A stretch of 64,000 nt of DNA, from assembly GCA_021731085.1 (NCBI GenBank), contig JAKFYB010000001.1, positions 101,266 to 165,265 on the forward strand, in the 5' to 3' direction. This document shows positions 1,594-39,745 of the stretch, piece after piece (the first letter of the stretch is position 1; each line of letters opens with the position of its first letter). Made by a program: the position numbers and the translations under genes. Source of the DNA: Dehalococcoidia bacterium (GTDB lineage Bacteria > Chloroflexota > Dehalococcoidia > DSTF01 > JACRBR01). The notes under the pieces are model-generated. The model was not told where the DNA came from. It saw only the letters and a list, made by a program, of their open reading frames with translations, and searched no databases.

Positions 1594-4176
1594 ATGCGAA
1601 TCCGAATAACTGTGCTTGCCGCGATCGCCGGCGCGGCACTCGTAGCAGGTTTTGGCAGCGACCCGACCGACAAACGCGCGCAAGCGCAGGCGCCGACCGT
1701 CGAATACACGGGCGATGTGATCGTGAAATTCGACGCGGGCGTGACGCTTCCGGAAGTGGCGCAGGCGATCAGTGATGCAGATGGTTCGGCCGTGGCGACC
1801 AGCGCCGGTTCCGGCCTCGTGCTTGTCGAGCCTGCGGACGGCCAGTCACTTCAGGATGCGCTCAGTGAGTTGAAAGCGAACCCGGACGTAGCGTTCGCCG
1901 AGGCGGATACCGTCATGCGGGCCGACCTCATGCCCAACGATCCGCTTGCCAACAACGCGAGCTACAACTGGAGCTTGACCGAGATCGGCGCGCCCACCGC
2001 GTGGGACACGACGACGGGCAATGCGAACGTCATTGTGGCGGTGGTGGACACGGGCGTGGATGGCACGCCAGGCGACCTCATCGGCAAACTGACCTCCGGG
2101 GCGAACGCGGGCAAGAACTTCATCCAGATCGGCGTGAACACGTCCGTGAACGCGTCTGGTACAGCACGCATCCGGACGACGACAGCGCACCCGTATCGTT
2201 CGGGGGACTTCATCACGATCGCCGGCCACAGCGTCGCGGCCTACAACGGCTCGCGCGAGGTCTTCGTTCCCTCGACGAACATCAGCTCCGTCAGCAATTC
2301 AAGCGGTTCGGTGCTTGTCACAACATCCGCAGCCCACCAGCTTGCAACCGGCGATATGGTCAGCATCCGCAGCAACAGCGCGAACGTGACCTACCTTGCC
2401 GCGTCAACATCGATCAACCGCGAGTGGACGGTGACTGTCACGAGCACGACGCAGTTCACGCTGAACAGCGCGACCTACAACACTGCCGGCACCGGCGGGC
2501 AGGCGCGCGTCGCCTCCTACATGAATCTCGTGAGCGTGCCGTACACAAGCGCCGGGGCCGGTGGCACGGCGACCAACGACTCGCCGCGCGACGACCACAG
2601 CCACGGCACGTTCGTATCGGGCATCATCGCCGCGAATTCGAACAACGGTACAGGCATGGCGGGCGTCTGCTGGTCGTGCAAGATCATGCCGGTTAAGGTG
2701 CTGGACCACGAGGGCTATGGAAGTTCGTTCGGCGTCTCGCAAGGCATCGACTGGGCGGTCGCGAATGGCGCCGACGTTATCAACCTGAGCCTCGGCGGGG
2801 GCGGCACGGCAGGCTTGCAGACGTCGGTGAACAACGCATGGGCTGCCGGCGTGATCGTTGTCGCGGCGACGGGCAATGACAACGGGCCTGTGTCGTTCCC
2901 CGCTGCGTACTCCAACGCGATTGCCGTTGGCTCGACGCAACAAGGTGGCTCGCGGTCGTCATTCAGCAACTTCGGCCCGGAGATCGACATCGTCGCTCCC
3001 GGTAGCAGCGTGCTCGGCACATTGTGCCAGTGCAACGGTGGTGCAGGTGGCTACGGCACGGGCAGCGGCACGTCGTTCTCGACGCCATATGTCGCGGGTG
3101 CTGCGGCGCTCCTCATCGCGTCGGGGGTGACGGATAAGGCGCAGATCCGCTCGAAACTGCTGACGACGGCCACGGATCTTGGTACCGGCGGCTTCGACAA
3201 CCTCTATGGCAACGGTCGTCTCAACGTTGGCTCAGCGATCGCCACCCCAGGGACGGCCACACCAACCAACACTCCGACGAACACGGCAACGCCCACGAAC
3301 ACGGCCACGCCAACATCGACGCCGACGCCCGACACGACTGATCCTTCCGCGAACATCACAGCGCCTACGAACGGCGCCGTACTCGCGCTCGGCAATGTTG
3401 TGATAAACGCGTTTGCTGCGGATGGCGGCGGCGTGAACAAGGTTCGGTTCTGGGTGGACTCGACGTACCTGGGATTCGATAGTGCCGCTCCGTACACCAG
3501 GACCTGGGACGCGAGTAGTGCTGGACCTGGCAGCAGTCACGTAATCAAGATCGAAGCGATCGACAACTCGAACAACTCGACCATCCGAACCATCACGGTC
3601 ACGATGGCTGGTGCGGACGGAACGCCACCGACGGCGAGCATTACCTCGCCTGTGGCTGGTGCGAGCGTCTCCGGCATGGTGCCGGTCAACGCTACGGCCA
3701 GTGACGCCGGTGGCATCAACAAGGTGCGGTTCTGGGCGGGTTCGACCTATCTCGGCTTCGACGCAACAGCGCCGTACTCCAGGACGTGGGACTCTTCCCT
3801 CTCCGTATCGGGGCCAGTGACGTTGAAAATCGAAGCCATTGACAACGCGAACAACTCAACGTTCCGGACGATTGTAGTGACAAACGTGTCAACTGATGTG
3901 ACGCCGCCGACGGCGACGATCACTGTCCCTGCTGACGGCGCCACCGTCTCTGGCACGGTCGCGTTAACGGCAACGGGATCCGACGCCGGCGGTATCCAGA
4001 AGATTCGGTTCTGGGTCGACGCGACGTACCTTGGTTACGACTCTACGAGTCCGTACCAGCGTTCGTGGAACACAACTCTCGTGCCGAACGGCGTCTACGT
4101 CCTCAAGGCACAGGCTGTCGATCTGGCAAATAACGAAAGCACGATCGTCACCATCACCGTGACCGTGTCGAATTAG
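1594..4176 (+). CDS. Secreted S8 subtilisin-like serine protease with Thr/Pro linker and three C-terminal Ig-like repeats
   Basis: Catalytic triad motifs VVDTGVD, HGTFVSGIIAA and GTSFSTPYVAGAAALL. N-terminal signal peptide. About 185 aa inserted between the Asp and His motifs. GAGGGGG RBS upstream of the ATG. Confidence 0.85.
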   Translation: MRIRITVLAAIAGAALVAGFGSDPTDKRAQAQAPTVEYTGDVIVKFDAGVTLPEVAQAISDADGSAVATSAGSGLVLVEPADGQSLQDALSELKANPDVAFAEADTVMRADLMPNDPLANNASYNWSLTEIGAPTAWDTTTGNANVIVAVVDTGVDGTPGDLIGKLTSGANAGKNFIQIGVNTSVNASGTARIRTTTAHPYRSGDFITIAGHSVAAYNGSREVFVPSTNISSVSNSSGSVLVTTSAAHQLATGDMVSIRSNSANVTYLAASTSINREWTVTVTSTTQFTLNSATYNTAGTGGQARVASYMNLVSVPYTSAGAGGTATNDSPRDDHSHGTFVSGIIAANSNNGTGMAGVCWSCKIMPVKVLDHEGYGSSFGVSQGIDWAVANGADVINLSLGGGGTAGLQTSVNNAWAAGVIVVAATGNDNGPVSFPAAYSNAIAVGSTQQGGSRSSFSNFGPEIDIVAPGSSVLGTLCQCNGGAGGYGTGSGTSFSTPYVAGAAALLIASGVTDKAQIRSKLLTTATDLGTGGFDNLYGNGRLNVGSAIATPGTATPTNTPTNTATPTNTATPTSTPTPDTTDPSANITAPTNGAVLALGNVVINAFAADGGGVNKVRFWVDSTYLGFDSAAPYTRTWDASSAGPGSSHVIKIEAIDNSNNSTIRTITVTMAGADGTPPTASITSPVAGASVSGMVPVNATASDAGGINKVRFWAGSTYLGFDATAPYSRTWDSSLSVSGPVTLKIEAIDNANNSTFRTIVVTNVSTDVTPPTATITVPADGATVSGTVALTATGSDAGGIQKIRFWVDATYLGYDSTSPYQRSWNTTLVPNGVYVLKAQAVDLANNESTIVTITVTVSN
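3343..4173 (+). repeat. Three tandem ~280-nt coding repeats (~93-aa Ig-like modules) in the protease C-terminus
   Basis: The protein repeats the pattern TPPTA(T/S)IT.P..GA.VSG.V...A..SDAGGI.K(V/I)RFW...TYLG(F/Y)D...PY.R(T/S)W three times. Confidence 0.7.
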
Positions 4177-4243
4177 TGATTGGAGCAGGGTCGCACAACC
4201 CGCCACCGGATAGTGCGACCCTGCGATCTCTCCTGCTTACTTG

Positions 4244-5371
4244 TCATGCGGCTCGAGCTGCTGTGCGTTCCTCGACATTTCCGGCAATCGCTTCGATATA
4301 GCGGTCGGCCGTGCGACCCCAACCGAAGTTGTCCAGCGTGTACGACCGCATGCGGGCCCCGGCGTCCACGATCGCCTGTCGCGGCAACGAGAGGAGACCG
4401 CGAATCTCAGCGGCCCACGCAGACGCGTCTAGCGGCGGAACAAGCACGCCGTTCCCTCCGTGATGGATCGCCTCGGGGATTCCGTCGAGATTCGAAGCCA
4501 GGACGGGAAGCCCGGAAGCGGAAGCCTCAAGTGCGACCAGGCCAAAGCCCTCCATATCGCCAGTCACAGGCACGTTTGGCATGACGAAGAGATCAGACGA
4601 GGCGTAAGCCGCCGCCAGAACCGAGTCGGTGACGCTTCCCAACATTCGAATGCGGTCATGCACACCCGCGATTGCAGCGGCTCGTTCGATTTCCCCCTTC
4701 ATCGCTCCGACACCGATGATGCAGTACGTGACATCCTCGGGAAGGCGTGGTAGCACATGCTCCACAAACCATGCGACGCCCTTGCGTTCGATCAGGCGAC
4801 CGACGGTCAGAACCACTCGCTCCCCTTCCCGCACTGCGGCCAGTTTGCTGAACTGTTGTCGCGCCTCCGTGGTTGGTTCAGGCAACGGGTTTATTCCCAA
4901 CGGGATCACTTCTGACATTGGATTGGGGCCAGTCCGCTCGTGCATCGCGGCCTCGGTTGCTGCACTGATCGGCATCGCCAAATCGATGCGGCGCAGGCCG
5001 TTGGTGATCACCCGCTGATAGATTTCGTTTTCGTACGTGACATCAAGACCGCACACCGACGCGGTCACTCGAATCCCGGTTGCGGCTTTGATCGCCGCGC
5101 CGACCGGTGCGAGCAACGCGTCTGCAAGATGGACGCTAGTAAAGCCGCCGGAGCGCACCTGACGGACTGCTGCTGTCGCCGCATACGGAAGAAACAGTGG
5201 CAGCGCCTTCTTTCCCCGATGGTTGATGAGGGAAACAATCTCGACGCGTTCCTCGAGGTGATTGTGGAGCTGCAACGCAAGGTTTTCCATCCCGCCCTGG
5301 GTCGGTGGATATGCGCGGGCAATGAACAGGATCTTCAAGTCTGTCGCGCGAACGGCACTAGCGAGACGCAT
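4244..5371 (-). CDS. Glycosyltransferase family 4 (GT-B)
   Basis: EGFGLVALEASASGLPV motif and overall GT4 architecture; 375 aa. Confidence 0.8.
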   Translation of the reverse strand: MRLASAVRATDLKILFIARAYPPTQGGMENLALQLHNHLEERVEIVSLINHRGKKALPLFLPYAATAAVRQVRSGGFTSVHLADALLAPVGAAIKAATGIRVTASVCGLDVTYENEIYQRVITNGLRRIDLAMPISAATEAAMHERTGPNPMSEVIPLGINPLPEPTTEARQQFSKLAAVREGERVVLTVGRLIERKGVAWFVEHVLPRLPEDVTYCIIGVGAMKGEIERAAAIAGVHDRIRMLGSVTDSVLAAAYASSDLFVMPNVPVTGDMEGFGLVALEASASGLPVLASNLDGIPEAIHHGGNGVLVPPLDASAWAAEIRGLLSLPRQAIVDAGARMRSYTLDNFGWGRTADRYIEAIAGNVEERTAARAA

Positions 5372-11191: not shown

Positions 11192-12226
11192 GTGAAACTG
11201 ATTGTCACTATCCCCGCGCTTAACGAAGAGCCGACGATCGCCGGCGTCATCCGCGAGATCCCCCGCCGGATACCCGGGTTCGATTCCGTCGAAGTGCTCG
11301 TCATCGACGACGGCTCGACGGACGCGACGGTGCAGCAGGCATTGCGGGCAGGCGCGGACTACGTCGTCTCAAACCGCGTCACGCGTGGCCTGGCGACCAG
11401 TTTCAAGACGGCCTTGCAGGAAGCGCTCGCGCGGGGCGCTGACATCATCGTCAACACCGACGCCGACAACCACTACGACCAGTCGCGCATTCCCGAACTC
11501 GTCGCACCGCTGCTCACCAACGAGGCCGATATAACCATCGGTAGCCGCCTCATCGACGAATTGCCGATGAAGGCCGCCAACAAGTACGGCAACAAGGTTG
11601 CAAACTACATCATGCAGCACGCGCTCGGTATCCCGGGCGTCGATGTGTCCACCGGCTTCCGTGGCTACACAGCTGAAGCGGCGATGAAGCTCAACGTCCT
11701 CTCGGACCACACGTATACACACGAGACGCTGATCAATGCGCTCGACCAGCGCATGAGGATCGTCAACGTGCCCATCGCGGCTCGCCATGTCGAGCGCCCC
11801 TCGCGCTTGATCAAGAGCATCGCCAGCCATGTGGTGCGCGCCGGCGGCGTCATCCTGCGAAGTTTCCTGCTGTACAGGCCGATGCAGGTCTACGGCACGC
11901 TCGGCGCACTGTTCTTGCTTGCGGGCGCGATTCCCTTTGCGCGCTTCGCAGTGCTCGTTGCGATCGGACAGAGCGAAGGCCACGTACAGTCGCTCGTCGT
12001 CGGCACCGCGCTGACGTTCTTCGGCGGTCAGATGATCATTACAGGCATGCTTGCCACGGCCATCTCGTGGAATCGTCGCATGATCGAGGACGTCCTCTTC
12101 CGCATGAAGTCGGAACCAATCAGCACAACGCGCGAGCGACCACGCCTGCGCATCGTACGGACACCAGGTGACGAAGAGTATGGGAGCACAACAGCAAATG
12201 GCAGCACCTCACGCAATGCCGCATAG
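11192..12226 (+). CDS. GT2 polyprenol-phosphate sugar synthase (DPM1/GtrB-like) with C-terminal TM anchor
   Basis: KLIVTIPALNEE...VLVIDDGSTD GT2 signature, DxD region, and two C-terminal TM helices. Confidence 0.8.
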   Translation: MKLIVTIPALNEEPTIAGVIREIPRRIPGFDSVEVLVIDDGSTDATVQQALRAGADYVVSNRVTRGLATSFKTALQEALARGADIIVNTDADNHYDQSRIPELVAPLLTNEADITIGSRLIDELPMKAANKYGNKVANYIMQHALGIPGVDVSTGFRGYTAEAAMKLNVLSDHTYTHETLINALDQRMRIVNVPIAARHVERPSRLIKSIASHVVRAGGVILRSFLLYRPMQVYGTLGALFLLAGAIPFARFAVLVAIGQSEGHVQSLVVGTALTFFGGQMIITGMLATAISWNRRMIEDVLFRMKSEPISTTRERPRLRIVRTPGDEEYGSTTANGSTSRNAA

Positions 12227-13076
12227 GACAGCAGCACCAATCGGTATCATCGGGGCGGGCGTCGTTGGCGGCGCCCTCCAGTCGTATCTGGAGGCGCGAG
12301 GCGCTGATGTGCGTCTCTACGACCCCCCGAAGGGCCACGCGTCGATGAGCGCGCTCAATGACGCCGAGATCGTCTTCGTCTGCGTCCCGACGCCGTATGC
12401 CCCGGGCCGGGGATTCGATGATTCGCATTTGCTATCTGCAGTATCGACTTTGGACGGCGGACGCGTCGTCATCATTAAGTCCACCGTGCTCCCGGGTACC
12501 ACACAGATGCTGCAGGAGCGAATGCCGCAGCACCGTTTCCTCTTCAACCCGGAGTTCCTGCGGGAAGCGACAGCCTACGACGACTTCATCAATCCCGACC
12601 GCCAGATCGTCGGCTGCACGTATGCAAGTCTCGGTGATGCTCATCGCATCATGGAGATACTGCCCCGCGCGCCGTTCGAGCGCATCTGCCCATCCAGCGA
12701 CGCCGAAATGGCGAAATACGTCGCGAATGCATTTCTTGCCGTGAAGGTCAGCTATGCCAACGAGGTGTACGACCTCTGCGACCGGCTGCACATCGATTAC
12801 GACTCCGTGAAGGACATCGTGGCCGCGGACGAACGCATCGGCGAGTCCCACATGAACGTGCTCGACAGTGGCTATCGGGGCTACGGCGGCAAGTGCCTAC
12901 CGAAGGACAGCAAGGCATTGCTCGATCTCGCCCGCACGCTCGGCGTCGACCTCCGCGTGCTCCGCGCAGCAGATCGCGCAAATGCGTTGTTGGTCGGCGA
13001 AGAACTCGGTGCCCGCATCACGCCGATCAAGCCCATGGCGATCGCGAAGGTCGAGGCCGAAGAGGTCGCCGCGTAA
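12198..13076 (+). CDS. UDP-glucose/GDP-mannose dehydrogenase family protein (short form)
   Basis: N-terminal GIIGAGVVGG Rossmann motif and the catalytic-Cys motif GGKCLPKD. The start overlaps the upstream gene and is uncertain (12168, 12198 or 12216). Confidence 0.6.
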   Translation: MAAPHAMPHRTAAPIGIIGAGVVGGALQSYLEARGADVRLYDPPKGHASMSALNDAEIVFVCVPTPYAPGRGFDDSHLLSAVSTLDGGRVVIIKSTVLPGTTQMLQERMPQHRFLFNPEFLREATAYDDFINPDRQIVGCTYASLGDAHRIMEILPRAPFERICPSSDAEMAKYVANAFLAVKVSYANEVYDLCDRLHIDYDSVKDIVAADERIGESHMNVLDSGYRGYGGKCLPKDSKALLDLARTLGVDLRVLRAADRANALLVGEELGARITPIKPMAIAKVEAEEVAA

Positions 13077-13110
13077 GCACGGAACGCCCTCGGACTCGAT
13101 ATTAGACAAC

Positions 13111-13150
13111 GGAGCGCGGGCCCGCCCATGGCGGCTTTCAGCCCGCGTGT
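13111..13150. repeat. REP-like GC hairpin, divergent copy (GCGGGCCCGC ... GGCGGCTTTCAGCCCGCGTGTTC)
   Basis: Shares CTTTCAGCCCGCGTGTTC with the copy at 18774, and lies ~40 bp after the stop of the dehydrogenase-like gene. Confidence 0.5.
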
Positions 13151-13243
13151 TCGCGATGGCTCCGACCGTGCGCACTTGCGCCAAGTACAGCGACGACCGT
13201 CCGCTATTCTGAGTTCGAGATCTGAATCGAGGAGGAACCACGC

Positions 13244-13720
13244 ATGGCGGCGCCGTTTGGACATGGGTTCGTGGGGATGGCGCTCGCGCGGCGCATGGGT
13301 GTGAAGTCACCTCTCGGACTGGCGGCGGCCTTCTTCGCAGCGAGCATCCCTGATGTGGATGTCCCGATCGGCGCGATCATCGGCAAGGACATCCACCGGC
13401 AGGGCACGCACACGCCGAACTTCGCGTTGACGGCAGGCATGCTTGCTGGCATGACGGGCGTGCTCGCGGCCGAGAGCGTTGAAGGCGAACGTGACCTCAT
13501 CCTCGACGCGATGACGGGCGCCGTGATCGTCGGATCCCACCTGGTGCTGGACAAGGCGCCGTACTTCCCGGACATCCCCTTCGGCCCGAAGCTGATAGGT
13601 ATGCCGGTGGCGAACTGGGTCGTGGATGCCATCCAGTGGGGCATCGTTGCCTACTTGATCTGGCCCAAGGGCGAAGTTGATGCGCTCGGTGAACCTACGC
13701 CGGAGCATGTCGTCGCCTAG
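13244..13720 (+). CDS. Membrane-bound metal-dependent hydrolase (YdjM/DUF457-like)
   Basis: Small polytopic protein with conserved His/Asp positions as in the YdjM family. Confidence 0.45.
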   Translation: MAAPFGHGFVGMALARRMGVKSPLGLAAAFFAASIPDVDVPIGAIIGKDIHRQGTHTPNFALTAGMLAGMTGVLAAESVEGERDLILDAMTGAVIVGSHLVLDKAPYFPDIPFGPKLIGMPVANWVVDAIQWGIVAYLIWPKGEVDALGEPTPEHVVA

Positions 13721-13901
13721 CCCCAAACTTGACATCCTGGCCCTGCCCCGAAGCCGCTAATCGAACCTGAGAGCGGCTTTTTCGTGTGCCCAACTGCGAA
13801 GTTGACACGCTCGCGTGTGATTGGCGTTTGGATCAGCACGCAAGGAATGCGGCCTGCCACCGGCGGTCCCGCCGGAACCAACCCCGTAAGGCAGTCCAAA
13901 G

Positions 13902-14504
13902 ATGCACCGTATTTCCGCGCCACTGCGCGGCCGCGTGATCGCGCTGGCCGTTTCGATCTCCATCGTAATCACCGCTGCTGGCTGTGGCTCGATCGGGTTC
14001 AACCAGGCGCCAGCGAATGGGTATGTTTGGGGCTCGCAACAGCCGTTGCGCATTGCCGTCATCAACCAAGCCGGGCCGGAGTGGTCTTCGTCGCTACAGT
14101 CGTCTCTGCGGCAGTACGAGGAGGGTGCTGGCGGAAACCTGCAATTCCAGAACACGCCCGACGGCGCGAATATCGTCATCACGGTGAAGACATACACCGA
14201 CACAGCACCGCCGGACCTCGAAGGCTACGACTTTCCGCAGGGCGCAGGTGGCTTCGCGACTGTGTACGACGCGCAGGGTCTCGCGTGCAACTACCCACCG
14301 TCGACGCTGCCGCTCAACTGTTCCGGCGAGATCACCCGCACGGAGATTTGGCTGAACCTCGCTATCCCCGCGGGAAGTGACATAGAAGCGCGGCGCGGCC
14401 GACTGCTGCTCCACGAACTCGGGCACGCGATGGGGCTGACACGCCACGCGCCGACGCTCGACATCGGCATGCTCGAACAACGTTACGGCTGGGAGCACCA
14501 GTAG
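13902..14504 (+). CDS. Small secreted metzincin-like zinc metalloprotease
   Basis: Signal peptide plus the HELGHAMGLTRH motif (HExxHxxGxxH). Confidence 0.6.
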   Translation: MHRISAPLRGRVIALAVSISIVITAAGCGSIGFNQAPANGYVWGSQQPLRIAVINQAGPEWSSSLQSSLRQYEEGAGGNLQFQNTPDGANIVITVKTYTDTAPPDLEGYDFPQGAGGFATVYDAQGLACNYPPSTLPLNCSGEITRTEIWLNLAIPAGSDIEARRGRLLLHELGHAMGLTRHAPTLDIGMLEQRYGWEHQ

Positions 14505-15191
14505 TCAGGTGCGCTTCTCGCCGTAGCGGTTCCAGTGCGTCACCTGTTCGGCAGGACGGCGCGGCGCTATGCCGAACTTCCCCTTCGGCCGGCCCATCGG
14601 CACGAGCGCCACGATCTCGAACGACTCCGGCACGCCGAGGATCTCGCGCACCTCGTCTTCATGCACGCGGTAGACCGTCGTGAATGCGGTGCCGATACCC
14701 AGCGCGCGGGCGGCCAGAATGAAGTTCTGCACCGCGGGAAAGACGGACGCGTGCGTCGTCCCGATAAAGATCGGCCCCTGTTCGTCGCGCATCGTCAGGT
14801 CGATCTTCGGCATCAAGAACGCGACCATCGCTGGCGCTTCGCCGATCGTGTCGGCGAGATACCGTGATGCACGTTTCATCCTGTCGCGATGCTCGGCATC
14901 CTTCTCGTTGCGCGGCAGTGGCGCGATCTTGTTGTACGTGTTCTCAAAGCGGTGGTACGACTTCCCGTACACCTCGCCGACCGCGCGCTTGGTGCCCGGG
15001 TCGGTGATGACGAGAAACTGCCACGGTTGGATATTGCCGTTGTTTGGCGCTTGCACAGCTGCGCGCAGGCATGTCGCGATCTCTTCGTCCGTGACAGGCT
15101 CGTCGGTGTACCGGCGGATTGCCCGCGTCGTCATGATGGCGTCGAGTAGCGCTTGGTCGTTAGTCGTTGAGCGTTGGGGATCGTCAGACAT
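14505..15191 (-). CDS. Nitroreductase family protein
   Basis: RAIRRYTDEPVTDEEI N-terminal motif and nitroreductase-like length. Confidence 0.75.
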   Translation of the reverse strand: MSDDPQRSTTNDQALLDAIMTTRAIRRYTDEPVTDEEIATCLRAAVQAPNNGNIQPWQFLVITDPGTKRAVGEVYGKSYHRFENTYNKIAPLPRNEKDAEHRDRMKRASRYLADTIGEAPAMVAFLMPKIDLTMRDEQGPIFIGTTHASVFPAVQNFILAARALGIGTAFTTVYRVHEDEVREILGVPESFEIVALVPMGRPKGKFGIAPRRPAEQVTHWNRYGEKRT

Positions 15192-17833: not shown

Positions 17834-18721
17834 CTACGGCCGGACGCCGATGAGCTTCGCGACCTTGATCGCGTTGAACAGCGCGAGGGCGACGTACCAC
17901 TTCACGCGGGTGCGCGTAGCGTCCTTCGTCTCGAGGCTGCCGATCGTCTCGACCTGCAGGCCGCCGGGGGACGTCAAGCCGGCGACCGCGCCTTCGCCGA
18001 TCTGCAGCGCGTAGATGGTCGAGCAGTCGCTGCTGCTGCCGACGGTCTTCGCATCGCCGATGTAGTCGCTGATGGCGACGGGGATGCCGTCGTAGAACTG
18101 CACCATCTGGCCGAAGTCGTTGCGGTCGGCCTGCAGCAGGCTGCCCGTCGCGCGGGCGAGCGTGTTCAGCGAGCGTCGGGTGCGCTTGCTCATGAGGAGC
18201 ATGGCCGGCGGGCCGCCCTTCACTGCGTCCACCAACTCATCGAGCTTGGCGAGCGTGAGCGACGCGCCGTTTGCGCCCAGCGTCAGCGACTGGCCGCCGA
18301 CGGTGAGCTTATCGATGCCGTCGAAGGACTTCGTGTCGACGGCTGAGTCGCCGTTGAGGAACGTGTCCTCGAACTTCTGCTGCACGGCCTTCGCGCGGAG
18401 GCGAATGACGGCCGCCTGCAGGTCCTGCACGTTATTGCGCGTCGTCAGCAGGTAGTTGTCGATGTCGGCGTCGCCGCCAATGATCTTGAGCGGCGTCGTG
18501 ATCTGCGTGAACGTCGGCGTGCCCTCCGTCCATGTGTCGCCGACGTCGAAGAACGTTGCGGCGGGGTTCACGTTCTCGCGGTTGTAGGTGAGGCCGTTGC
18601 CGGTGATCTCGACGAAGGGCAGCATCTGGAGGATGGGCGACTCCTGCACGATCGTCTCGATGACGCCCTGGAGGATGATGTCGTTCGAGAGCTTCGCGCC
18701 CTCGGCCAGTGTGAGTGCCAA
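17834..18721 (-). CDS. HK97-family phage major capsid protein-like (no delta domain), TTG start
   Basis: Matches the Phage_capsid pattern: N-terminal VIETIVQESPILQMLPFVEITGNGLTY, FLNGDSAVDTKSFDGI (LNGDG motif), YDGIPVAISDYIGD (LLGRPV-like) and a C-terminal AIKVAKL. AAGGA RBS 8 nt upstream of the TTG. Confidence 0.65.
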   Translation of the reverse strand: MALTLAEGAKLSNDIILQGVIETIVQESPILQMLPFVEITGNGLTYNRENVNPAATFFDVGDTWTEGTPTFTQITTPLKIIGGDADIDNYLLTTRNNVQDLQAAVIRLRAKAVQQKFEDTFLNGDSAVDTKSFDGIDKLTVGGQSLTLGANGASLTLAKLDELVDAVKGGPPAMLLMSKRTRRSLNTLARATGSLLQADRNDFGQMVQFYDGIPVAISDYIGDAKTVGSSSDCSTIYALQIGEGAVAGLTSPGGLQVETIGSLETKDATRTRVKWYVALALFNAIKVAKLIGVRP

Positions 18722-18735
18722 TGTTGGTATCCTTG

Positions 18736-18759
18736 TGATCGGTGATCGGTGATCGGTGC
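18736..18759. repeat. Heptanucleotide tandem repeat (GTGATCG x3) in the capsid gene 5' UTR
   Basis: gtgatcggtgatcggtgatcggtg, 15 nt upstream of the capsid TTG start. Confidence 0.6.
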
Positions 18760-18773
18760 TCGTGAGCCACGTA

Positions 18774-18800
18774 GCGCGGGCTTTTCAGCCCGCGTGTTCA
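18774..18800. repeat. REP-like GC hairpin (AGCGCGGGCTTTTCAGCCCGCGTGTTC)
   Basis: 8-bp stem CGCGGGCT/AGCCCGCG with a TTTC loop, between the scaffold-like and capsid-like genes. Confidence 0.65.
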
Positions 18801-18847
18801 TCACACGCGACCAGGTTCTTGATTCTCGGTTCTCCTTCCTCGCCGGC

Positions 18848-19378
18848 CTACGACGCCCGCTGCGACAGGCCGAGGCGGATCTTCTGCTCCGGCGAGAGCG
18901 TGCTGTAGTCGGGCGCGCCGCGCGGTGGTGCGCCTGCGGGCACGCGCAACGACTGCGCCTGCGTCTCGATGTGCGTGCGGACACGGCTTACGACGTCCTT
19001 TGCGGCGCTCACGGACTGTTCTATCGTTTCGATGTCGTCGCCGCCGATCAGTTCCGCCGGCAGCTCCGGTTCCGCGCGCGCGACGAGATCGCGGTACTTC
19101 TCGGCCGCTGTTCGCAGGCGTGCCTCCGCCTGCTCGACGAACGTGCGCGCGGACTGCGCTTCGTTCGCCGATGACTCCTGCGCTTCCTGTGCCGATGCCA
19201 GTTCGTTGCGCAGCGCCGCCGCTTCGCCAATAGCCGTTGCGGCCCGTGCTTCGGCGTCTGCGGCGCCGATCTGGAGGCGTTCAACCTCCGCTCGTGATTC
19301 GGCGAGCTGTTCCTGGAGCGCCGCCAGTTCCTCGCCCGATGGGGGCGACGCGGCTTGTGAGCCGGGGTCCTTCATCAT
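18848..19378 (-). CDS. Coiled-coil protein, putative capsid scaffolding protein
   Basis: 176 aa of Ala/Glu/Gln-rich heptad-like sequence, a strong AGGAGGTG RBS, GC3-rich codons, immediately upstream of the capsid-like gene. Confidence 0.45.
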   Translation of the reverse strand: MMKDPGSQAASPPSGEELAALQEQLAESRAEVERLQIGAADAEARAATAIGEAAALRNELASAQEAQESSANEAQSARTFVEQAEARLRTAAEKYRDLVARAEPELPAELIGGDDIETIEQSVSAAKDVVSRVRTHIETQAQSLRVPAGAPPRGAPDYSTLSPEQKIRLGLSQRAS

Positions 19379-19531
19379 CCACCTCCTGTGCTATCCCTGA
19401 CCGCTAGGGCGAGAGTAGGCGGGGTGGTAAGCGTGCTCCAAGCCCCGGATGGCACTTCACGCGGAATCATCCGATTTTCCTGAACACACTTCGAGCGTTG
19501 CCCGCCTAGCTGCGGCTATCCTTCCTGACCT

Positions 19532-20629: not shown

Positions 20630-21661
20630 GTGATGGCAAACAAACCGAAATACTGGGGCACGCTCGTGCCGCTGCCGGCGCCGGTGATAGCGGCGCAATG
20701 CCAGCAGTTCGAGGCGATGGGGCTAGAGGGAGCGTTCGCGCCGCAGGTCTCGTCGACGCCGTTCGCAGTGCTCGGGGCCGCAGCTGCCGTCTCGACGAAG
20801 ATGCGCCTCGCGTCCGGCATCGGACTGGCGTTCGTGCGCAGTCCTTTCGAGACAGCACTGCACGCGCTCGACCTCGACAAGCTCAGCGGCGGCCGCTTCA
20901 CGCTGGGTCTCGGCACGAGCGTCGAGTCGTGGACAGAGGGCTTCTATGGCATGCACTACGGCAAGCCGCTTGAGCATCTGCGCGAAGTCGTCGAGATCGT
21001 GCGGCTCGTCATCGCGAAAGGTCACACGGGCGAGCTGACGCGCTTCGAAGGCAAGTACTGGGAGCTGGACTTCAGCGAATGGCAGCCCTCTGGCCCGCCC
21101 GTGCGCGACAACATTCCGATCTGGATCGCCGCCCTCCGCACGCCGCTGATCCGCCTCGCGGCCGAAATTGGCGATGGCGTGATGGGGCACCCGATTTGGT
21201 CGCTCGACTGGGCGTCAACGAAGGTACAGGACGACCTCAAGGCCGGGCTTGCGGCGGGCGGTAAGCAGCGCAGCGACATCGACTTCAATGTTTGGCTCTG
21301 GGTCGCGCCGAACCCTGACCGAAAGCAGGCGATCGAGGACGCGCGCGGCACCGTCGCGTTCTATGCCGGCGTCGCGCAGTACGAGGAGTACTTCGCCGCG
21401 CACGGCTTTCGCGCCGAGGCCCGGGCGCTGCAAGAAGGCGTACAGCGCGGCGACTACCTCTCGGTGAAGCACCTTGTGACGGACGAGATGGCGCAGACGT
21501 TCGTCGTCTGCGGCACGCCGGACGAAGTGCGCGAGCGCGTCTCAGCGACCTGGGAGTTTGCGGATAGCGCCTGCCTCAATCCCCCCGCGTACGGGTTGGA
21601 GATGGGCGCAATGCTTCGGTATGGGGCCGCCATCGCGGACTTGTTTTACGCATCCCAGTAG
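20630..21661 (+). CDS. LLM-class F420-dependent oxidoreductase
   Basis: Luciferase-like monooxygenase TIM-barrel signatures. The window also encodes the F420 chromophore synthase genes cofG and cofH. Confidence 0.7.
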   Translation: MMANKPKYWGTLVPLPAPVIAAQCQQFEAMGLEGAFAPQVSSTPFAVLGAAAAVSTKMRLASGIGLAFVRSPFETALHALDLDKLSGGRFTLGLGTSVESWTEGFYGMHYGKPLEHLREVVEIVRLVIAKGHTGELTRFEGKYWELDFSEWQPSGPPVRDNIPIWIAALRTPLIRLAAEIGDGVMGHPIWSLDWASTKVQDDLKAGLAAGGKQRSDIDFNVWLWVAPNPDRKQAIEDARGTVAFYAGVAQYEEYFAAHGFRAEARALQEGVQRGDYLSVKHLVTDEMAQTFVVCGTPDEVRERVSATWEFADSACLNPPAYGLEMGAMLRYGAAIADLFYASQ

Positions 21662-23796
21662 CCGTGGAGCGACGCGATCTTGCCGTCGCTGTCAAGCGCG
21701 AGGACGATGACGCCGCTGAACGGGGGTGTTGTTCCATCGCGGTCCTCGACGCGCGTTGCGATTGCTGCTTCGTTTCCCGCGACGCAGATCGTCTCAATGC
21801 TCACGGAGTGGTTCGCGAACCGAATGAGCATCTGGTCGAACACCTGACCGATCGCTTCGATGCCGATCATCGGAATCATGCCTGGTGGATCCTGGCGCAT
21901 ACCGTGCTCTGACCACAGAGCGAGAAAGCTCTCGCGGTTCCCGGCGTTGATCGCGGCGACGTATGCCTCCGCCATCGCATACGGCCGCTGGTCGTCGACG
22001 TCGCGGAGCGGTCGAAACGATGTGACGGCCGAAAGCAGTCCCTCGTGTGAGGTCAGCACCTCGATGCCACGCGCCGCCGTGATGGTTCCCGGCGATTGAT
22101 CAAGATCCGTCCAGACGATGGCAACGTCGTCGCGCACGGCATACGCACTATCAAGGCGCAGGTCGTGTTGGCTGTGAGGCATTGCGTGATCCCACCACCT
22201 GGCAAGGCCGTCGATTCCGATGAACGGGGCCTCGTGATAGGGCACCTGCGCTACACAGTCTTCAGCAAACATGCCGAGAAATTCATCGCGGTCGCGCTTG
22301 TTGAGCACTTCGATGAAACGGTCGGCGAGGTTGCGCAGGCCTTCGAGCCAGGCACTTCGGTCTACATCGTCCACCTGTTCCACCCAGGGCGCCTCGTCGG
22401 ACTCCCAGTACGAATGTGCAGACGCGATCTTGCCGTCGCTATCGATACCCAGGATGTCCACGCCGACGCCTTCAGTTCGTGCGCCGTTGTCCTCGTACTT
22501 CGCACGCCACGCGATCGCGAGTTCATTCCCAGCGACGCAAACATGGTCGATGCTGAATGCGAGAGACGGATGAATGGCTGTCACGTCGTCCCACCAAGCA
22601 CGGATAGCAGCGTGCCCGATCCGCGGTGGCGTCCCGACTGGGTCCTGCTGAACGGCCTCGGGAGCAAACAGCGCGAGGAACGCCGCGCCATCACGCTCGC
22701 CAACCGCGCGAATGTACTGTGTCGCCAGATTCTGCATGGCCGGTTCTGTTGTTTTGCTCCGCGACCAGTAGGAGTGGCATGAAGCGATGAGATCGCCATC
22801 AAAGGACAGGATTTCGACACCACGCGCGTGGTGTATCTCGCCGTCTCGCTTATGCGCGATCGTCCACAAGATTGCCGCTTCCTCGCCCGTGATGTTGGAA
22901 GTTTCGAGGCGCACGTCGTATTCGTTATCGAGGGTGATTAACGCATCCCACCAGAGGCCGATCGCCTCATGGCCAATGTGGGGTGACTCGTCGATCGGAT
23001 CCTGGATGATGCCGTCCGGCGCGAAGAGTGCGATGAAGGCCGCGCGATCGCGGCGATTCAGCGTGTCCACGAACTCCTCGATGATCGCCCGCAGATCCGC
23101 CCTCCTGTTGCGCACGCTTGTGCTCGCGAATGCTGACGCGAGAGTCGCTGCCGCGGCGGTCGCATCATCGGCGCTGCACACTGCGCTGATGACGGCTGCC
23201 GCATCCGCGCCCGCGGCGATCACCTCCACGATGTTGTCGGCGTTGATGCCACCAATTGCGACGACGGGCACGTTGACGGCTGCCTTCACCGCACGGATGC
23301 GGTCGAGGTTCGCGGGGCGGGTGTCTTCCTTCGACGACGTCGGGAAGATGGCGCCGACGGCAACATAGTCCGCGCCGCCTGCCTCCGCTGCGAGCGCCTC
23401 GGCCGCGTTGTTCGTTGACACGCCGATGATGGCATCGGGGCCGAGGAGAGCGCGCGCTGCTGCAAATGGAAGGTCGTGCTGTCCCAGATGGACGCCGTGT
23501 GCGCCCGCCGCCGTCACTAGGTCAGCATGGTCGTTGATGATCAGATGCGCGCCGCGCTCACTACAGAGCTGAGCTATTGCGTGCGCATCCGCGATCTGTT
23601 CGCCTTTGTCGCGGCGTTTGTCCCGCCACTGGAGGATGTTCGCGCCGCCTTCGAGCGCGCCGCGTGCGACATCAACGGGCGAGCGATCACCGCACGCATC
23701 GGGATCGATGATGACGTAGAGTCCCTGAATTCGGTGCGGTGTCGCCATATTCGTTGCTGAGGGCTGGGTCATATATGATCTCATATTCCGGACCAA
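21646..23796 (-). CDS. thiE: Thiamine-phosphate synthase (ThiE) fused to four tandem NTF2-like (SnoaL/DUF4440-like) domains
   Basis: N-terminal ~210 aa has ThiE motifs (YVIIDPD, VSTNNAAEALAAEAGGADYVAVGAIFPTSSK). Four ~120-aa repeats follow, each beginning F(V/I)..LN.RDR..F..LFA. Confidence 0.7.
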   Translation of the reverse strand: MVRNMRSYMTQPSATNMATPHRIQGLYVIIDPDACGDRSPVDVARGALEGGANILQWRDKRRDKGEQIADAHAIAQLCSERGAHLIINDHADLVTAAGAHGVHLGQHDLPFAAARALLGPDAIIGVSTNNAAEALAAEAGGADYVAVGAIFPTSSKEDTRPANLDRIRAVKAAVNVPVVAIGGINADNIVEVIAAGADAAAVISAVCSADDATAAAATLASAFASTSVRNRRADLRAIIEEFVDTLNRRDRAAFIALFAPDGIIQDPIDESPHIGHEAIGLWWDALITLDNEYDVRLETSNITGEEAAILWTIAHKRDGEIHHARGVEILSFDGDLIASCHSYWSRSKTTEPAMQNLATQYIRAVGERDGAAFLALFAPEAVQQDPVGTPPRIGHAAIRAWWDDVTAIHPSLAFSIDHVCVAGNELAIAWRAKYEDNGARTEGVGVDILGIDSDGKIASAHSYWESDEAPWVEQVDDVDRSAWLEGLRNLADRFIEVLNKRDRDEFLGMFAEDCVAQVPYHEAPFIGIDGLARWWDHAMPHSQHDLRLDSAYAVRDDVAIVWTDLDQSPGTITAARGIEVLTSHEGLLSAVTSFRPLRDVDDQRPYAMAEAYVAAINAGNRESFLALWSEHGMRQDPPGMIPMIGIEAIGQVFDQMLIRFANHSVSIETICVAGNEAAIATRVEDRDGTTPPFSGVIVLALDSDGKIASLHGYWDA

Positions 23797-25702: not shown

Positions 25703-25750
25703 CCGGGCCATACTCGGATCGAGATGACGGAGCGCGGGCTTTTCACCCCG

Positions 25751-25776
25751 CGCTTCTTCGTGTGTCGGGAGAGCTT
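25751..25776. repeat. REP-like GC hairpin, variant (AGCGCGGGCTTTTCACCCCGCGC)
   Basis: Same element with one arm substitution, ~50 bp after the LLM gene stop. Confidence 0.6.
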
Positions 25777-36819: not shown

Positions 36820-37080
36820 CACATACAGGCGCAGACGCGCAGCAGTAGGTCTGGAAACAGCCACTAGCGAGCCGGTGATGGTGCAAGACCGGCGGCACGA
36901 CCAGATCGAACTCAGCGCCGAGCTGCCGGGGTGAATGTGGCACAGTCGTCCTCGGCTGTGAGACCTAGCCCCGACCGGGTCGCGACCGTTATCACGCTCC
37001 GAGAGTCCTTCCATGGAAGGAAAGAAGGGTGGCACCGCGGGCCTTCAACCCCGTCCCTTTATGAGGACGGGTTTTTTGTT
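36820..37080 (+). promoter_or_regulatory. Candidate T-box riboswitch leader (specifier-loop candidate GAA-CUC-A, Leu) upstream of ilvBNC-leuACD
   Basis: Exact T-box consensus AGGGUGGCACCGCG at 37026-37039, immediately before a canonical intrinsic terminator whose 5' arm (CCCU) can pair with the T-box AGGG in an antiterminator. Stem-I-like helix GGUCUGG/CCAGAUC, distal hairpin 36871-36892. No credible ORF in the interval. Confidence 0.5.
37050..37077 (+). terminator. Rho-independent terminator (CCCGTCC-ctttatga-GGACGGG + TTTTTTGTT)
   Basis: 7-bp GC-rich stem, 8-nt loop and a U6 tract, on the plus strand only. Confidence 0.7.
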
Positions 37081-37419
37081 AGCCTTCGGACTACGTGAAT
37101 GGCCCCGCTAAGGCGGAGGCAAAGGGATGTCGAAGCGGCATGGCCGATTCGATACTGAACAAGATGACGAACATCAACGCTTCTCCAACGGAGGTCACCC
37201 CGGTCGCAGCGGCCAGCCTACGGGCAATCCCCTGCGACCGCGACGTACTCCTTCCTCTTCTGCCGGTAGTGGGCGGGCTCCTTCCGCTCGTACTGCTTGG
37301 CCTCGCCCTGTAAACGTCCCCTCGGCTTGAACATTGATAGCGCGGGCGGGACGGTAAATTCCCACACAGCGAGACGCACGAGCCGCACGGATGAAGGCTC
37401 GGACGCAGGAGAAGCGAAC

Positions 37420-39132
37420 ATGGCAACCCAAGGCAAGATCAAAGGCGCCGAAATCATCATGGAATCGCTCCGCAAGGAGGGTGTCGACCTGATCTTCGGC
37501 TACCCCGGCGGCGCGAACCTTCCGATGTACGACGCGCTGCACAAGTACCCCGACATCAGGCACATTCTCGTCCGCCACGAGCAGGCCGCCGCCCACGCCG
37601 CCGACGCCTACGCTCGCGTCACTGGCAAGGCCGGCGTCTGTTGGGCGACGTCCGGTCCCGGCGCGACGAACCTCGTCACCGGCATCGCCAACGCATGGAT
37701 GGACTCCGTGCCGCTGGTGTGTATCACGGGACAGGTTGTCTCGTGGCTCCTCGGCCGGGACGGATTCCAGGAAGCGGACATCACGGGCATCACCATCCCG
37801 ATCGTCAAGCAGAACTGGCTCGTCCTCAACGTCGAGGACATCGCACCGACGATCGCCGAAGCGTTCCACGTCGCGACGACGGGACGTCCCGGCCCGGTGC
37901 TCGTCGACATTCCACGCGACGTGCAACAGCAACTGTGCGAGTTCGAGTACCCCGACAAGGTCGACATCCCCGGCTACCAGCCGACCGTGCAGGGCCACCC
38001 ACAGCAGATCAAGAAGGCGGCCGCGCTCATCGCCGAGGCCGAACGCCCGCTGATTCTCGCCGGACACGGTGTCGTTATCGCGCGCGCCGCTGAAGAACTG
38101 CAAGAGCTGGCCGAGAAGGCCGACATCCCCGTCATCACGACGCTGCTCGGGCTGGGCGGCTTCCCTGGTTCGCACGAGCTGTACCAGGGCATGCCCGGCA
38201 TGCACGGCATGTACTGGAACAACATCGCGATCCAGGAGGCTGACGTCCTCATAGCGATCGGCATGCGGTTCGATGACCGCGTCACCGGCTCGCTGAAGGA
38301 CTTCGCGCCGAAAGCGAAGATCATCCACATCGAGGTCGATCCGGCGGAGGTCGGCAAAAACGTGCCGACGGCAATCCCGATCGTCGGCGACGTGAAGGCT
38401 GTTCTGCAGCAGTTGCTGCCGCACGTTGAGCGGGCGCGTCACGACGATTGGCGCAACTGGTTCCGCGAGATGCGCCGCGACCACCCGTCGATCGCCATCC
38501 CGGAGACGGAGAAGATCCTGCCGCAGTACGTCATCAAATCGATCTACGATCGATCGCCCGGCGACGCCTACTATGCGACCGGCGTTGGCCAGCACCAGAT
38601 GTGGGCGGCGCAGTACTTCTGGGGTGACAATCCGTACTCGTTCGTCACGTCCGGCGGGCTCGGAACGATGGGATTCGAAGTGCCGGCGGCGATCGGCGTG
38701 CAGTTCGCGCGCCCGCAGAGCACCGTCTGGTCGTTCTGCGGCGATGGTGGCTTCCAGATGACAATGGAGGAGCTGGCGCTCTGCCGCGAGTACGAACTGC
38801 CGATCAAGTTCGCCATCATCAACAACCACTTTCTCGGCATGGTGCGGCAGTGGCAGGACACCTTCTACGACCACAACCTCTCGCAGGTGAAGATGTTCCA
38901 GCCGGACTTCGTGAAGCTTGCGGAGGCGATGGGCATCGAGGCGATCCGCGTCACGGACAAGGCCATGGTGCCGACGGCGATCGACGCAGCGTTGCAGCAC
39001 CCCGGCGCCGTCCTCATCGACTTCCACGTCGAGCACGTCGAGGACTGCTACCCGATGATGCCGCCTGGCGTCAGCCTCTCCGACACGATCGACCAGCCGC
39101 CGGTCGCCCAACTGCAGGAGGCGCTGCGATGA
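37420..39132 (+). CDS. ilvB: Acetolactate synthase large subunit (biosynthetic type)
   Basis: ThDP-enzyme motifs throughout and an N-terminus (MATQGKIKGAEII) typical of AHAS. AGGAGA RBS. The ORF-track start at 37297 looks like an upstream artefact. Confidence 0.9.
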   Translation: MATQGKIKGAEIIMESLRKEGVDLIFGYPGGANLPMYDALHKYPDIRHILVRHEQAAAHAADAYARVTGKAGVCWATSGPGATNLVTGIANAWMDSVPLVCITGQVVSWLLGRDGFQEADITGITIPIVKQNWLVLNVEDIAPTIAEAFHVATTGRPGPVLVDIPRDVQQQLCEFEYPDKVDIPGYQPTVQGHPQQIKKAAALIAEAERPLILAGHGVVIARAAEELQELAEKADIPVITTLLGLGGFPGSHELYQGMPGMHGMYWNNIAIQEADVLIAIGMRFDDRVTGSLKDFAPKAKIIHIEVDPAEVGKNVPTAIPIVGDVKAVLQQLLPHVERARHDDWRNWFREMRRDHPSIAIPETEKILPQYVIKSIYDRSPGDAYYATGVGQHQMWAAQYFWGDNPYSFVTSGGLGTMGFEVPAAIGVQFARPQSTVWSFCGDGGFQMTMEELALCREYELPIKFAIINNHFLGMVRQWQDTFYDHNLSQVKMFQPDFVKLAEAMGIEAIRVTDKAMVPTAIDAALQHPGAVLIDFHVEHVEDCYPMMPPGVSLSDTIDQPPVAQLQEALR

Positions 39133-39717: not shown

Positions 39718-39745
39718 GTAGCGTGGGCTTTTCAGCCCGCGCGGT
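39718..39745. repeat. REP-like GC hairpin, variant (GTAGCGTGGGCTTTTCAGCCCGCGCGG)
   Basis: ~15 bp after the ilvN stop. Confidence 0.6.

Follow-up and report, generated by a model that had tools for sequence, protein, structure and literature searches.

We analyzed a 64,000-nucleotide stretch of DNA from a Dehalococcoidia bacterium (phylum Chloroflexota; contig JAKFYB010000001.1 of assembly GCA_021731085.1, forward-strand positions 101,266 to 165,265), the whole of which is referred to here as the window. An earlier note, made from the letters of this DNA, had drawn attention to two adjacent minus-strand open reading frames (ORFs), a scaffold-like gene followed by a gene for an HK97-family major capsid protein (MCP), and had proposed that they form a domesticated capsid module rather than a prophage. 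Both ORFs lie where the note had placed them (Table 1).

The 295-aa product of the downstream gene matched the NCBIfam model NF045672 (MCP_gp7_epsi_15) at 1.3e-60 and 205.5 bits (cut-off 75), with residues 4-289 aligned to positions 1-305 of the 309 in the model, and PHROG 212 (phrog_212, major head protein) at 1.7e-72. Pfam PF05065 (1.9e-14, 54.2 bits; cut-off 24.2) and TIGR01554 (5.3e-13) were matched as well. The delta domain is absent from the protein, as had been noticed, because the TIGR01554 match covers the model from position 121 onward only. An AlphaFold model computed from a diverse alignment adopted the HK97 fold (pLDDT 82, pTM 0.75), and the N-arm, the E-loop, the P-domain spine helix and the A-domain were all present. 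Curated sequence cut-offs were passed over the full length. The product of the downstream gene is thus a complete major capsid protein of the epsilon15-gp7/HK97 type without a delta domain. The closest MCPs of cultured phages are 39-41% identical to it, and their genes lie just downstream of a scaffold gene within a terminase-portal-head-tail block.

The gene immediately upstream had been read as encoding a coiled-coil scaffold. In family searches its 176-aa product gave coiled-coil noise and a weak match to a scaffold PHROG (phrog_1793, 1.9e-4), and no curated family threshold was reached. Its C-terminal motif (YRDL..R.EP.LPAELI.G...VR.HIE.QA...PAG.PPR..D.S..PEQKIR.GL) recurs across the tiers of loci that we compared (L numbers designate these loci). 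Through this motif the protein is homologous to the one that phage-like viral contigs such as L153 encode between their portal and MCP genes. The scaffold-position proteins of phages Ab18 and Nyceirae had no BLAST similarity to it, and the homology to phage proteins is visible only via Chloroflexota-associated phage contigs. By its sequence and by its place immediately before the coat gene, where phages have the homologous gene, the 176-aa ORF is a coiled-coil scaffold homolog, for which a role in coat binding and assembly is predicted.

The TTG start assigned to the MCP gene aligns with the ortholog starts; these are ATG in 24 of the 26 members of the clade defined below, and TTG is unique to the window copy. 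The ribosome-binding sites had both been described as strong. The Shine-Dalgarno sequence of the scaffold gene, AGGAGGTGG, directly precedes the ATG. That of the MCP gene is moderate, not strong; the MCP orthologs have AAGGAG followed by ACCAACAC and the ATG. The tandem heptamer repeat reported for the MCP leader was recovered by Tandem Repeats Finder (TRF; period 7, 4 copies). The exact heptamer is not conserved, but the period is, as a clade-specific feature of the two-gene version of the locus. Period 7 was the top period in 15 of 25 clade leaders, with a mean match of 0.62 versus 0.38-0.40 in shuffled and other-gene controls, and such repeats are nearly absent from sister lineages and viral contigs. 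In the clade they are A/C-rich, of ACCAGT, ACCAAT and ACCGAT types, and stand in 2-7 copies directly upstream of the MCP Shine-Dalgarno sequence (L013, L018, L021, L022, L032, L033 and others), with unit sequence and copy number drifting between species. Candidate roles are an unstructured translational enhancer, an array of sites for an RNA-binding protein, or an expression rheostat set by repeat number.

The REP-like hairpin between the two genes was also found as described, and two further copies were present in the window where 0.14 would be expected by chance. It forms the core of a dispersed genomic repeat of ~30 nt with at least three copies, which is not specific to this operon. Intergenic hairpins were not conserved among 24 orthologous loci (median folding z +0.25, none below -2). 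We therefore rejected the hairpin as a conserved regulator; the suggestion that it sets the scaffold:coat stoichiometry found no comparative support. A promoter and terminator scan of the locus found no site, and Rfam gave nothing at the scaffold-MCP locus.

Table 1. Features of the scaffold-coat locus, other window features, and genes that accompany the MCP gene in sister loci.
Feature	Position	Strand	Remarks
MCP gene	17834..18721	-	295 aa; TTG start at 18721; HK97 fold; epsilon15 gp7 / PHROG 212 type; no delta domain
Shine-Dalgarno of MCP gene	18730..18734	-	AAGGA, 8-nt spacer
Period-7 tandem repeat, MCP leader	18735..18762	-	CACCGAT on the coding strand, ~4 copies (TRF)
REP-like hairpin GCGGGCTGAAAAGCCCGC	18776..18793	-	conserved core about 18768-18797
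Overlapping hairpin CGCGTGTGATGAACACGCG, preceding the GCGGGCTGAAAAGCCCGC hairpin	18791-18809	-	sequence read
Scaffolding-protein homolog	18848..19378	-	176 aa; variable N-terminal coiled coil, conserved C-terminal motif
Shine-Dalgarno of scaffold gene	19379..19387	-	directly before ATG at 19378; sequence read
Luciferase-like monooxygenase gene	20630..21661	+	PF00296, 1.2e-50; divergently oriented syntenic neighbor of the pair
ThiE-SnoaL fusion gene	21646-23796	-	716 aa
Further GCGGGCTGAAAAGCCCGC hairpin copies	25734-25751; 39723-39740
T-box leader	36823-37061	+	Rfam RF00230, 110 bits
Acetolactate-synthase-type gene	37297-39132		TPP-dependent
LeuA-like gene	41368-42912
Aconitase/LeuC-like gene	43830-45230
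C25	downstream of MCP in sister loci		~130 aa; no Pfam, PHROG or NCBIfam match
C3 adaptor	downstream of MCP in sister loci		~211 aa; PF24175 SU10 head-to-tail adaptor, 2e-9
C2	downstream of MCP in sister loci		~656 aa; no Pfam, PHROG or NCBIfam match; nozzle is a positional guess only
C7	downstream of MCP in sister loci		~68 aa; no Pfam, PHROG or NCBIfam match
C20, C42	one subgroup of loci only		no Pfam, PHROG or NCBIfam match

The pair is flanked, as the earlier note had it, by a glucose/sorbosone dehydrogenase gene (GSDH, 3.4e-53) and a DUF4037 gene (9.8e-34). The ORFs between ~5.3 and 32.6 kb, and the ten largest of those outside this range, were all cellular by Pfam and include genes for acyl-CoA dehydrogenase, nitroreductase, luciferase-like oxidoreductases, a ThiE-SnoaL protein, the Tad pilus, cytochrome bc, ilv/leu functions, F420 biosynthesis and UbiA. 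Neither Pfam on these ORFs nor family-specific tblastn detected an integrase, replication, terminase, portal, tail or lysis gene in the 64 kb; the tblastn queries, namely the large terminase (TerL), portal, adaptor, C2 and C7 proteins of the MCP's own relatives, gave no match anywhere in the window. By these searches the earlier statement that local phage genes are missing holds for the whole stretch. There is no compositional island in the window, and no module typical of a capsid-forming phage-inducible chromosomal island (cf-PICI; integrase, regulator, primase/replicase and small terminase) was found in it; the locus is syntenic across species. Among the PADLOC-DB defence models the MCP had no match and the scaffold gave coiled-coil noise only. 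The divergently oriented luciferase-like gene showed no evidence of functional membership in the module and was used as a marker of vertical inheritance.

Two further arrangements in the window are recorded here for their own sake. The ThiE-SnoaL gene encodes an unusual architecture, a thiamine-phosphate synthase (TMP-TENI) domain fused to four SnoaL-like domains; the ThiE-like gene of the relative L001 encodes 214 aa only. The T-box leader lies 5' of the acetolactate-synthase-type gene, with the LeuA-like and aconitase/LeuC-like genes downstream.

Conservation of the pair across Chloroflexota

A search of the protein database returned 5278 MCP homologs. The best 120 were nearly all exactly 295 aa long and 77-100% identical to the window protein; many lie on contigs of 100-385 kb, and the source names, where given, are Chloroflexota or Dehalococcoidia. 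When one genome per GTDB species was scanned, relatives were found in 339 stretches, the best 80 of which all belong to Chloroflexota (67-89% identity; Dehalococcoidia, Tepidiformales, Thermoflexus, Anaerolineaceae and Ca. Amarobacter) and include complete chromosomes of 2-3.6 Mb. Flank genes were called by a codon-position GC rule, since antisense ORFs lead longest-ORF calling astray where GC is so high. The window clade comprises those of 81 non-redundant genomic loci whose MCP is at least 77% identical to that of the window. There are 26 of them, and in a neighbor-joining tree of the 81 loci they formed a monophyletic group.

The MCP ORF was intact at exactly 295 codons in 26/26 clade loci, with a median pairwise ratio of nonsynonymous to synonymous divergence (dN/dS) of 0.19. 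The scaffold gene lay directly upstream in every clade locus with upstream DNA, and no virion gene other than the pair was present within 10 kb of any of the 26 loci. Within the clade, the synteny check that had been proposed came out in favor of a pair kept without phage neighbors. In many members the upstream order is the same, namely a beta-propeller gene, a luciferase-like gene, the scaffold gene and the MCP gene. The luciferase-like ortholog was found upstream in 14 loci at 61-87% identity, and MCP identity correlated with the identity of this gene (Spearman rho 0.60, p 0.024, n = 14). Since MCP divergence tracks that of the flank and the synteny is shared, the pair and its flanks have descended together by vertical inheritance. 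The patchy presence and neutral decay expected of a prophage were not seen in the clade.

Measured from the window, the median MCP identity was 81% (dS 0.51), while the syntenic luciferase-like gene stood at 73% (dS 0.77); the MCP thus evolves more slowly than the flanking enzyme gene. The scaffold had a median identity of 54% in the clade (dN/dS ~0.4, dS 0.87), with no relative relaxation in its N-terminal half. The lower dS of the MCP gene (0.51 versus 0.77-0.87 in its neighbors) points to constraint on its synonymous sites as well, in agreement with its codon bias. That bias is extreme. The earlier note had called the G+C content at third codon positions (GC3) host-like, but at 0.95 the GC3 of the MCP gene exceeds that of every other ORF in the window (typical ~0.78), and across 59 loci the MCP gene ranked first in 39 and no lower than third in 50.

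There was no sign that the role of the protein has changed. Only two substitutions are fixed and specific to the clade, V40T and R179K, both conservative, and dN/dS was 0.19 in the window clade versus 0.25 in the lineages with fuller clusters. Within the clade 207 of the 295 positions are at least 90% conserved, and 112 positions are identical across all tiers. The capsid role of the MCP appears, from these patterns, unchanged in the window clade.

Fuller gene sets in relatives and in phage contigs

Loci with 75% MCP identity or less carry conserved same-strand genes downstream of the MCP gene (C25 to C42 in Table 1). In the nearest relatives of the window clade (L034-L040) the scaffold, C25, C3, C2 and C7 genes are all present, and L036 also has TerL and portal genes; the adaptor gene adjoins the MCP gene in 19 of 26 sister loci with full flanks. 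In L036 the coordinates are 1489-2898 for TerL, 3264-4610 for the portal, 11726-12520 for the adaptor C3 and 12530-14512 for C2. A fuller cluster is also present in a cultured bacterium, at locus L043, which is labelled Thermoflexus hugenholtzii JAD2. The window locus is accordingly a reduced derivative, because its closest relatives sit in larger phage-derived clusters. The description of the pair as an orphan is correct in cis, but its closest relatives belong to clusters with TerL, an SPP1-type portal and an SU10-type adaptor. The earlier note had held that its reading would be refuted if related genomes had the pair inside a complete prophage. This was found in part: the relatives do have larger clusters, but these reside in chromosomes in broken-up form, and none is a complete prophage.

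The same genes occur in viruses. In IMG/VR, 139 contigs carry MCP relatives at 52-72% identity, and the order in the viral contigs is contiguous: TerL, SPP1-type portal, scaffold homolog, MCP, in some cases C25, then C3, C2 and C7. Because this TerL-to-C7 order is contiguous, a real phage lineage with this layout exists. The cluster is tightly packed on one strand in the viral contig L153, and in L128 a replication protein O gene adjoins the portal gene.

The most complete chromosomal cluster (L170:7072-20153, on a 519-kb contig) spans ~13 kb and has cellular genes on both sides. Four small ORFs come first; then follow, in order, genes for the large terminase, a small helix-turn-helix (HTH) protein, the SPP1-type portal, scaffold, MCP, a protein of ~130 aa, the SU10-type adaptor, and finally two proteins of ~656 and ~68 aa. 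We recognized neither an integrase gene nor a replication gene in it, with several of its ORFs matching no Pfam, PHROG or NCBIfam family; on the neck side these are C25, C20, C42, a 116-aa protein, C2 and C7. As a separate observation, the N-terminus of C20 (~330-450 aa; e.g. L089:1420-2613) is homologous to C7, with ~52-54% identity over ~67 residues.

Elsewhere the set is interrupted or divided. In the complete chromosome of L036 an ImmA/IrrE-type HTH-peptidase gene and a PMT_2 glycosyltransferase gene stand between portal and scaffold, and the cluster ends beside dnaN. In L171 a 4.3-kb insertion at the same place holds HicB, HATPase_c and HARE-HTH genes (L171:11583-15447). A DNA methyltransferase gene and a putative restriction-enzyme gene are inserted as a pair immediately upstream of the MCP gene in L050 (L050:7917-9808). 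It seems that defence or accessory genes tend to insert at the boundaries of the clusters. A ~4.3-kb packaging block lies by itself among housekeeping genes in L169, L172 and L173, where no MCP gene is present within 10 kb; the block comprises four small ORFs, TerL, a 105-144-aa protein (HTH in L169 and L170) and an SPP1-type portal, and in L172 (L172:7113-11317) it lies between the ATP-synthase operon and nusA-infB. About nine genomes keep the MCP and adaptor genes only, in conserved synteny with CorC and TilS genes, and five loci have the scaffold gene displaced, 1.6-8.8 kb away from the MCP gene. Conservation of the portal family equals that of the MCP family (67-87% identity among the best 120 of 4091 matches, many on contigs of 0.2-2.7 Mb). 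Truncated portals occur in L035, L092 and L094. Beside the truncated portal of L092, ~2.6 kb upstream of the scaffold gene, lies a gene for a large serine recombinase (L092:4936-6663; an IMG/VR provirus call with an MCP 69% identical to that of the window). Some family members may once have been, or may still be, integrative elements.

Interpretation and alternatives

Judged by its intact state in 26/26 loci, purifying selection, flank synteny and extreme codon bias, the scaffold-coat pair reads as a domesticated module and not as a prophage, as the earlier note had proposed. The interpretation that we favor goes further. The pair would be a vertically inherited, selection-maintained scaffold-coat operon, the shell block of a dispersed, ancient, podovirus-derived particle system in Chloroflexota resembling a gene transfer agent (GTA). 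We put the probability of this interpretation at roughly 0.5 and prefer it because separate blocks are so frequent among the relatives. From gene content and conservation, an ancestral set of head, neck and packaging genes in Chloroflexota chromosomes would have been cut repeatedly into blocks, each of them maintained, until in the window clade scaffold and MCP alone remained together. By analogy with P22-type assembly, the coiled-coil scaffold would bind coat subunits through its conserved C-terminus and nucleate closed, procapsid-like shells. These shells may then be completed by unlinked portal, terminase and neck genes elsewhere in the genome, as the split loci across the family suggest, to yield a GTA-like DNA-packaging particle. 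Codon bias and leader architecture are consistent with abundant synthesis of the MCP and with a role of the period-7 repeats in its leader as an expression element peculiar to the clade.

Several observations weigh against this dispersed GTA-like interpretation. No terminase, portal, adaptor, C2 or C7 gene was seen in the window clade, across the 64-kb window and within 10 kb on either side of the 26 loci. The neck genes are missing from the locus in every clade member, whereas 19 of 26 sister loci with full flanks have the adaptor beside the MCP; a single deletion would fit this pattern as well as translocation would. When the portal and MCP match lists were compared, a comparison of low power, no window-clade contig was common to both. 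The clade-specific leader repeats could mark a change of role. The term GTA-like derives from gene content alone: L170, L036, L171 and L172 fit the gene content of a GTA as far as annotation allows, while the window clade shows 2 of ~10 genes. The absence of lysis and replication genes from the full clusters, in turn, depends for several ORFs on their not matching Pfam, PHROG or NCBIfam.

In its widest form the proposal is more tentative, and we hold it at somewhat less than even odds. Chloroflexota would possess, phylum-wide and vertically inherited, a new podovirus-derived type of GTA in scattered packaging, scaffold-coat and neck blocks, of which the window is the most reduced; or else the pair would here form a scaffold-assisted, encapsulin-like shell midway to a Family 2-type compartment.

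The strongest rival, which we consider possible and clearly the less probable, is a stand-alone shell. An ancestor would have lost the packaging and neck genes, and portal-less, procapsid-like shells would now serve a cellular role such as an encapsulin-like compartment or a particle for storage or sequestration, with the scaffold as assembly chaperone or internal adaptor. The pair stands alone in cis in 26/26 clade loci and the other cluster genes are absent from the 64 kb, as this explanation would have it. Coat and scaffold are the minimal set for P22-type procapsid assembly. The extreme codon bias suggests abundant and possibly constitutive expression, and the clade has its own leader repeat. 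However, no conserved adjacent cargo candidate was found, and the luciferase-like and beta-propeller neighbors are divergently oriented and gave no sign of a targeting peptide. The MCP matches no encapsulin sequence family and lacks the clade-specific divergence that a change of function might produce. The relatives also routinely keep blocks of the system apart in the genome.

The suggestion of an encapsulin-like particle had been part of the earlier note, and structural proximity alone backs it. In a structural comparison of the predicted MCP model with known capsids, Family 2 encapsulin shells were the nearest structures, while the best phage capsid scored 19.7 or less, cf-PICI 19.1, HK97 18.5-18.7, SU10 16.9, and RcGTA, the GTA of Rhodobacter capsulatus, 18.6; Foldseek was consistent with this. 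At the sequence level none of the encapsulin models (PF04454 Linocin_M18, the Family 2 models and PF08967; Family 3 has no dedicated model) was matched at E up to 1, and phage capsid families were the only Pfam or NCBIfam matches. A profile search of PDB sequences with the MCP returned nothing at E up to 0.01. The viral source of Family 2 encapsulins may lie near this MCP family; as the query was a predicted model, this is a lead and not a proof.

We regard anti-phage interference as improbable. Here resident coat and scaffold would co-assemble with, poison or misdirect the capsids of related phages infecting Chloroflexota. Such phages exist in the same habitats, as the IMG/VR contigs with the same scaffold-MCP type (52-72% MCP identity) and contiguous TerL-portal-head genes indicate; the codon bias implies high expression; and defence-type genes are inserted at related loci (restriction-modification in L050; HicB and HATPase_c in L171). 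Yet no PADLOC family was matched, and the slow purifying evolution of the MCP is unlike the pattern of an arms race. We also know of no precedent for a full-length coat gene as a decoy, which counts against the idea.

A functionless remnant of a decayed prophage, still unpurged, is strongly disfavored. The locus is indeed reduced from a larger phage-type cluster, decay does occur in the family, as in the truncated portals, and the window copy has a weak TTG start. Against this, the 295-codon ORF is uninterrupted in 26/26 species-level lineages despite a dS of ~0.5, with dN/dS of 0.19, conserved synteny and the strongest codon bias in the locus. A neutral remnant is ruled out because the pair is vertically inherited, the MCP is more constrained than the neighboring enzyme gene, and its codon usage is biased. 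An active prophage or cf-PICI-type satellite with its remaining genes just outside the region is effectively refuted for the window: the MCP is of true phage type, with cultured-phage relatives that also have an upstream scaffold gene, and L092 has a large serine recombinase gene near its cluster, but Pfam and family-specific tblastn found no other phage gene in the 64 kb, there is no compositional island, and the housekeeping flanks are shared with relatives.

Comparison with known systems

Our literature search found no description of this scaffold-MCP module; a preprint on the Dehalococcoides element IME1 concerns unrelated filamentous elements. To our knowledge domesticated capsids are known from few lineages, namely the encapsulins, the alphaproteobacterial and a handful of other GTAs, and satellites. 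The present module is unusual in that a separate scaffold is kept, in its podovirus-type ancestry, and in belonging to a series of clusters, spread over the phylum, that are dismantled to increasing degrees. The phylum is large, uncultured and abundant in the environment, and it has apparently retained podovirus-type genes for head, neck and packaging over a very long time, with subsets and places differing by lineage. These lineages form a natural series in which the dismantling of a virus module and its reuse by cells can be followed, and soil and groundwater Chloroflexota could prove to have a new route of horizontal gene transfer. Being structurally close to Family 2 shells, the MCP family is a concrete candidate for the viral lineage that gave rise to those compartments, and the two-gene version is small enough for a direct co-expression test.

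Compared with RcGTA, which is siphovirus-like and has a head with a protease and a delta domain, the Chloroflexota set has a podovirus-type layout (SU10-type adaptor, P22-like order) with a separate scaffold. The host phylum also differs, and in the window clade two genes of the set have been seen. It resembles the multi-locus GTAs in that the set is cut into separately maintained blocks. From the cf-PICIs the window locus differs in having no integrase, regulator, primase/replicase or small-terminase module and no signs of mobility, and in being inherited with its flanks.

The shells of Family 2 encapsulins (SrpI of Synechococcus, 6x8m; the Streptomyces 2B shell, 9bhu; A. baumannii, 8t6r) are 18-22% identical to the MCP. 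Encapsulins have no scaffold gene and adjoin cargo enzymes with targeting sequences, whereas here a scaffold is present, no cargo candidate or conserved co-oriented enzyme gene was found beside the pair, and the MCP relatives are linked to portal and terminase genes. Family 3 encapsulins sit inside biosynthetic clusters of Actinobacteria and Myxococcota, a different setting (PMC8346489).

In layout the pair resembles P22, epsilon15 and SU10. As in these phages, the coat gene lacks a delta domain and is immediately preceded by a gene of its own for a coiled-coil scaffold; in the relatives an adaptor gene (PF24175) and a large gene in the neck/nozzle position follow, and the MCP matches epsilon15 gp7 over its full length. 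Unlike them, the window pair lies outside any phage genome: it is chromosomal, syntenic and codon-optimized, and its coat protein is at most 41% identical to the MCPs of cultured phages.

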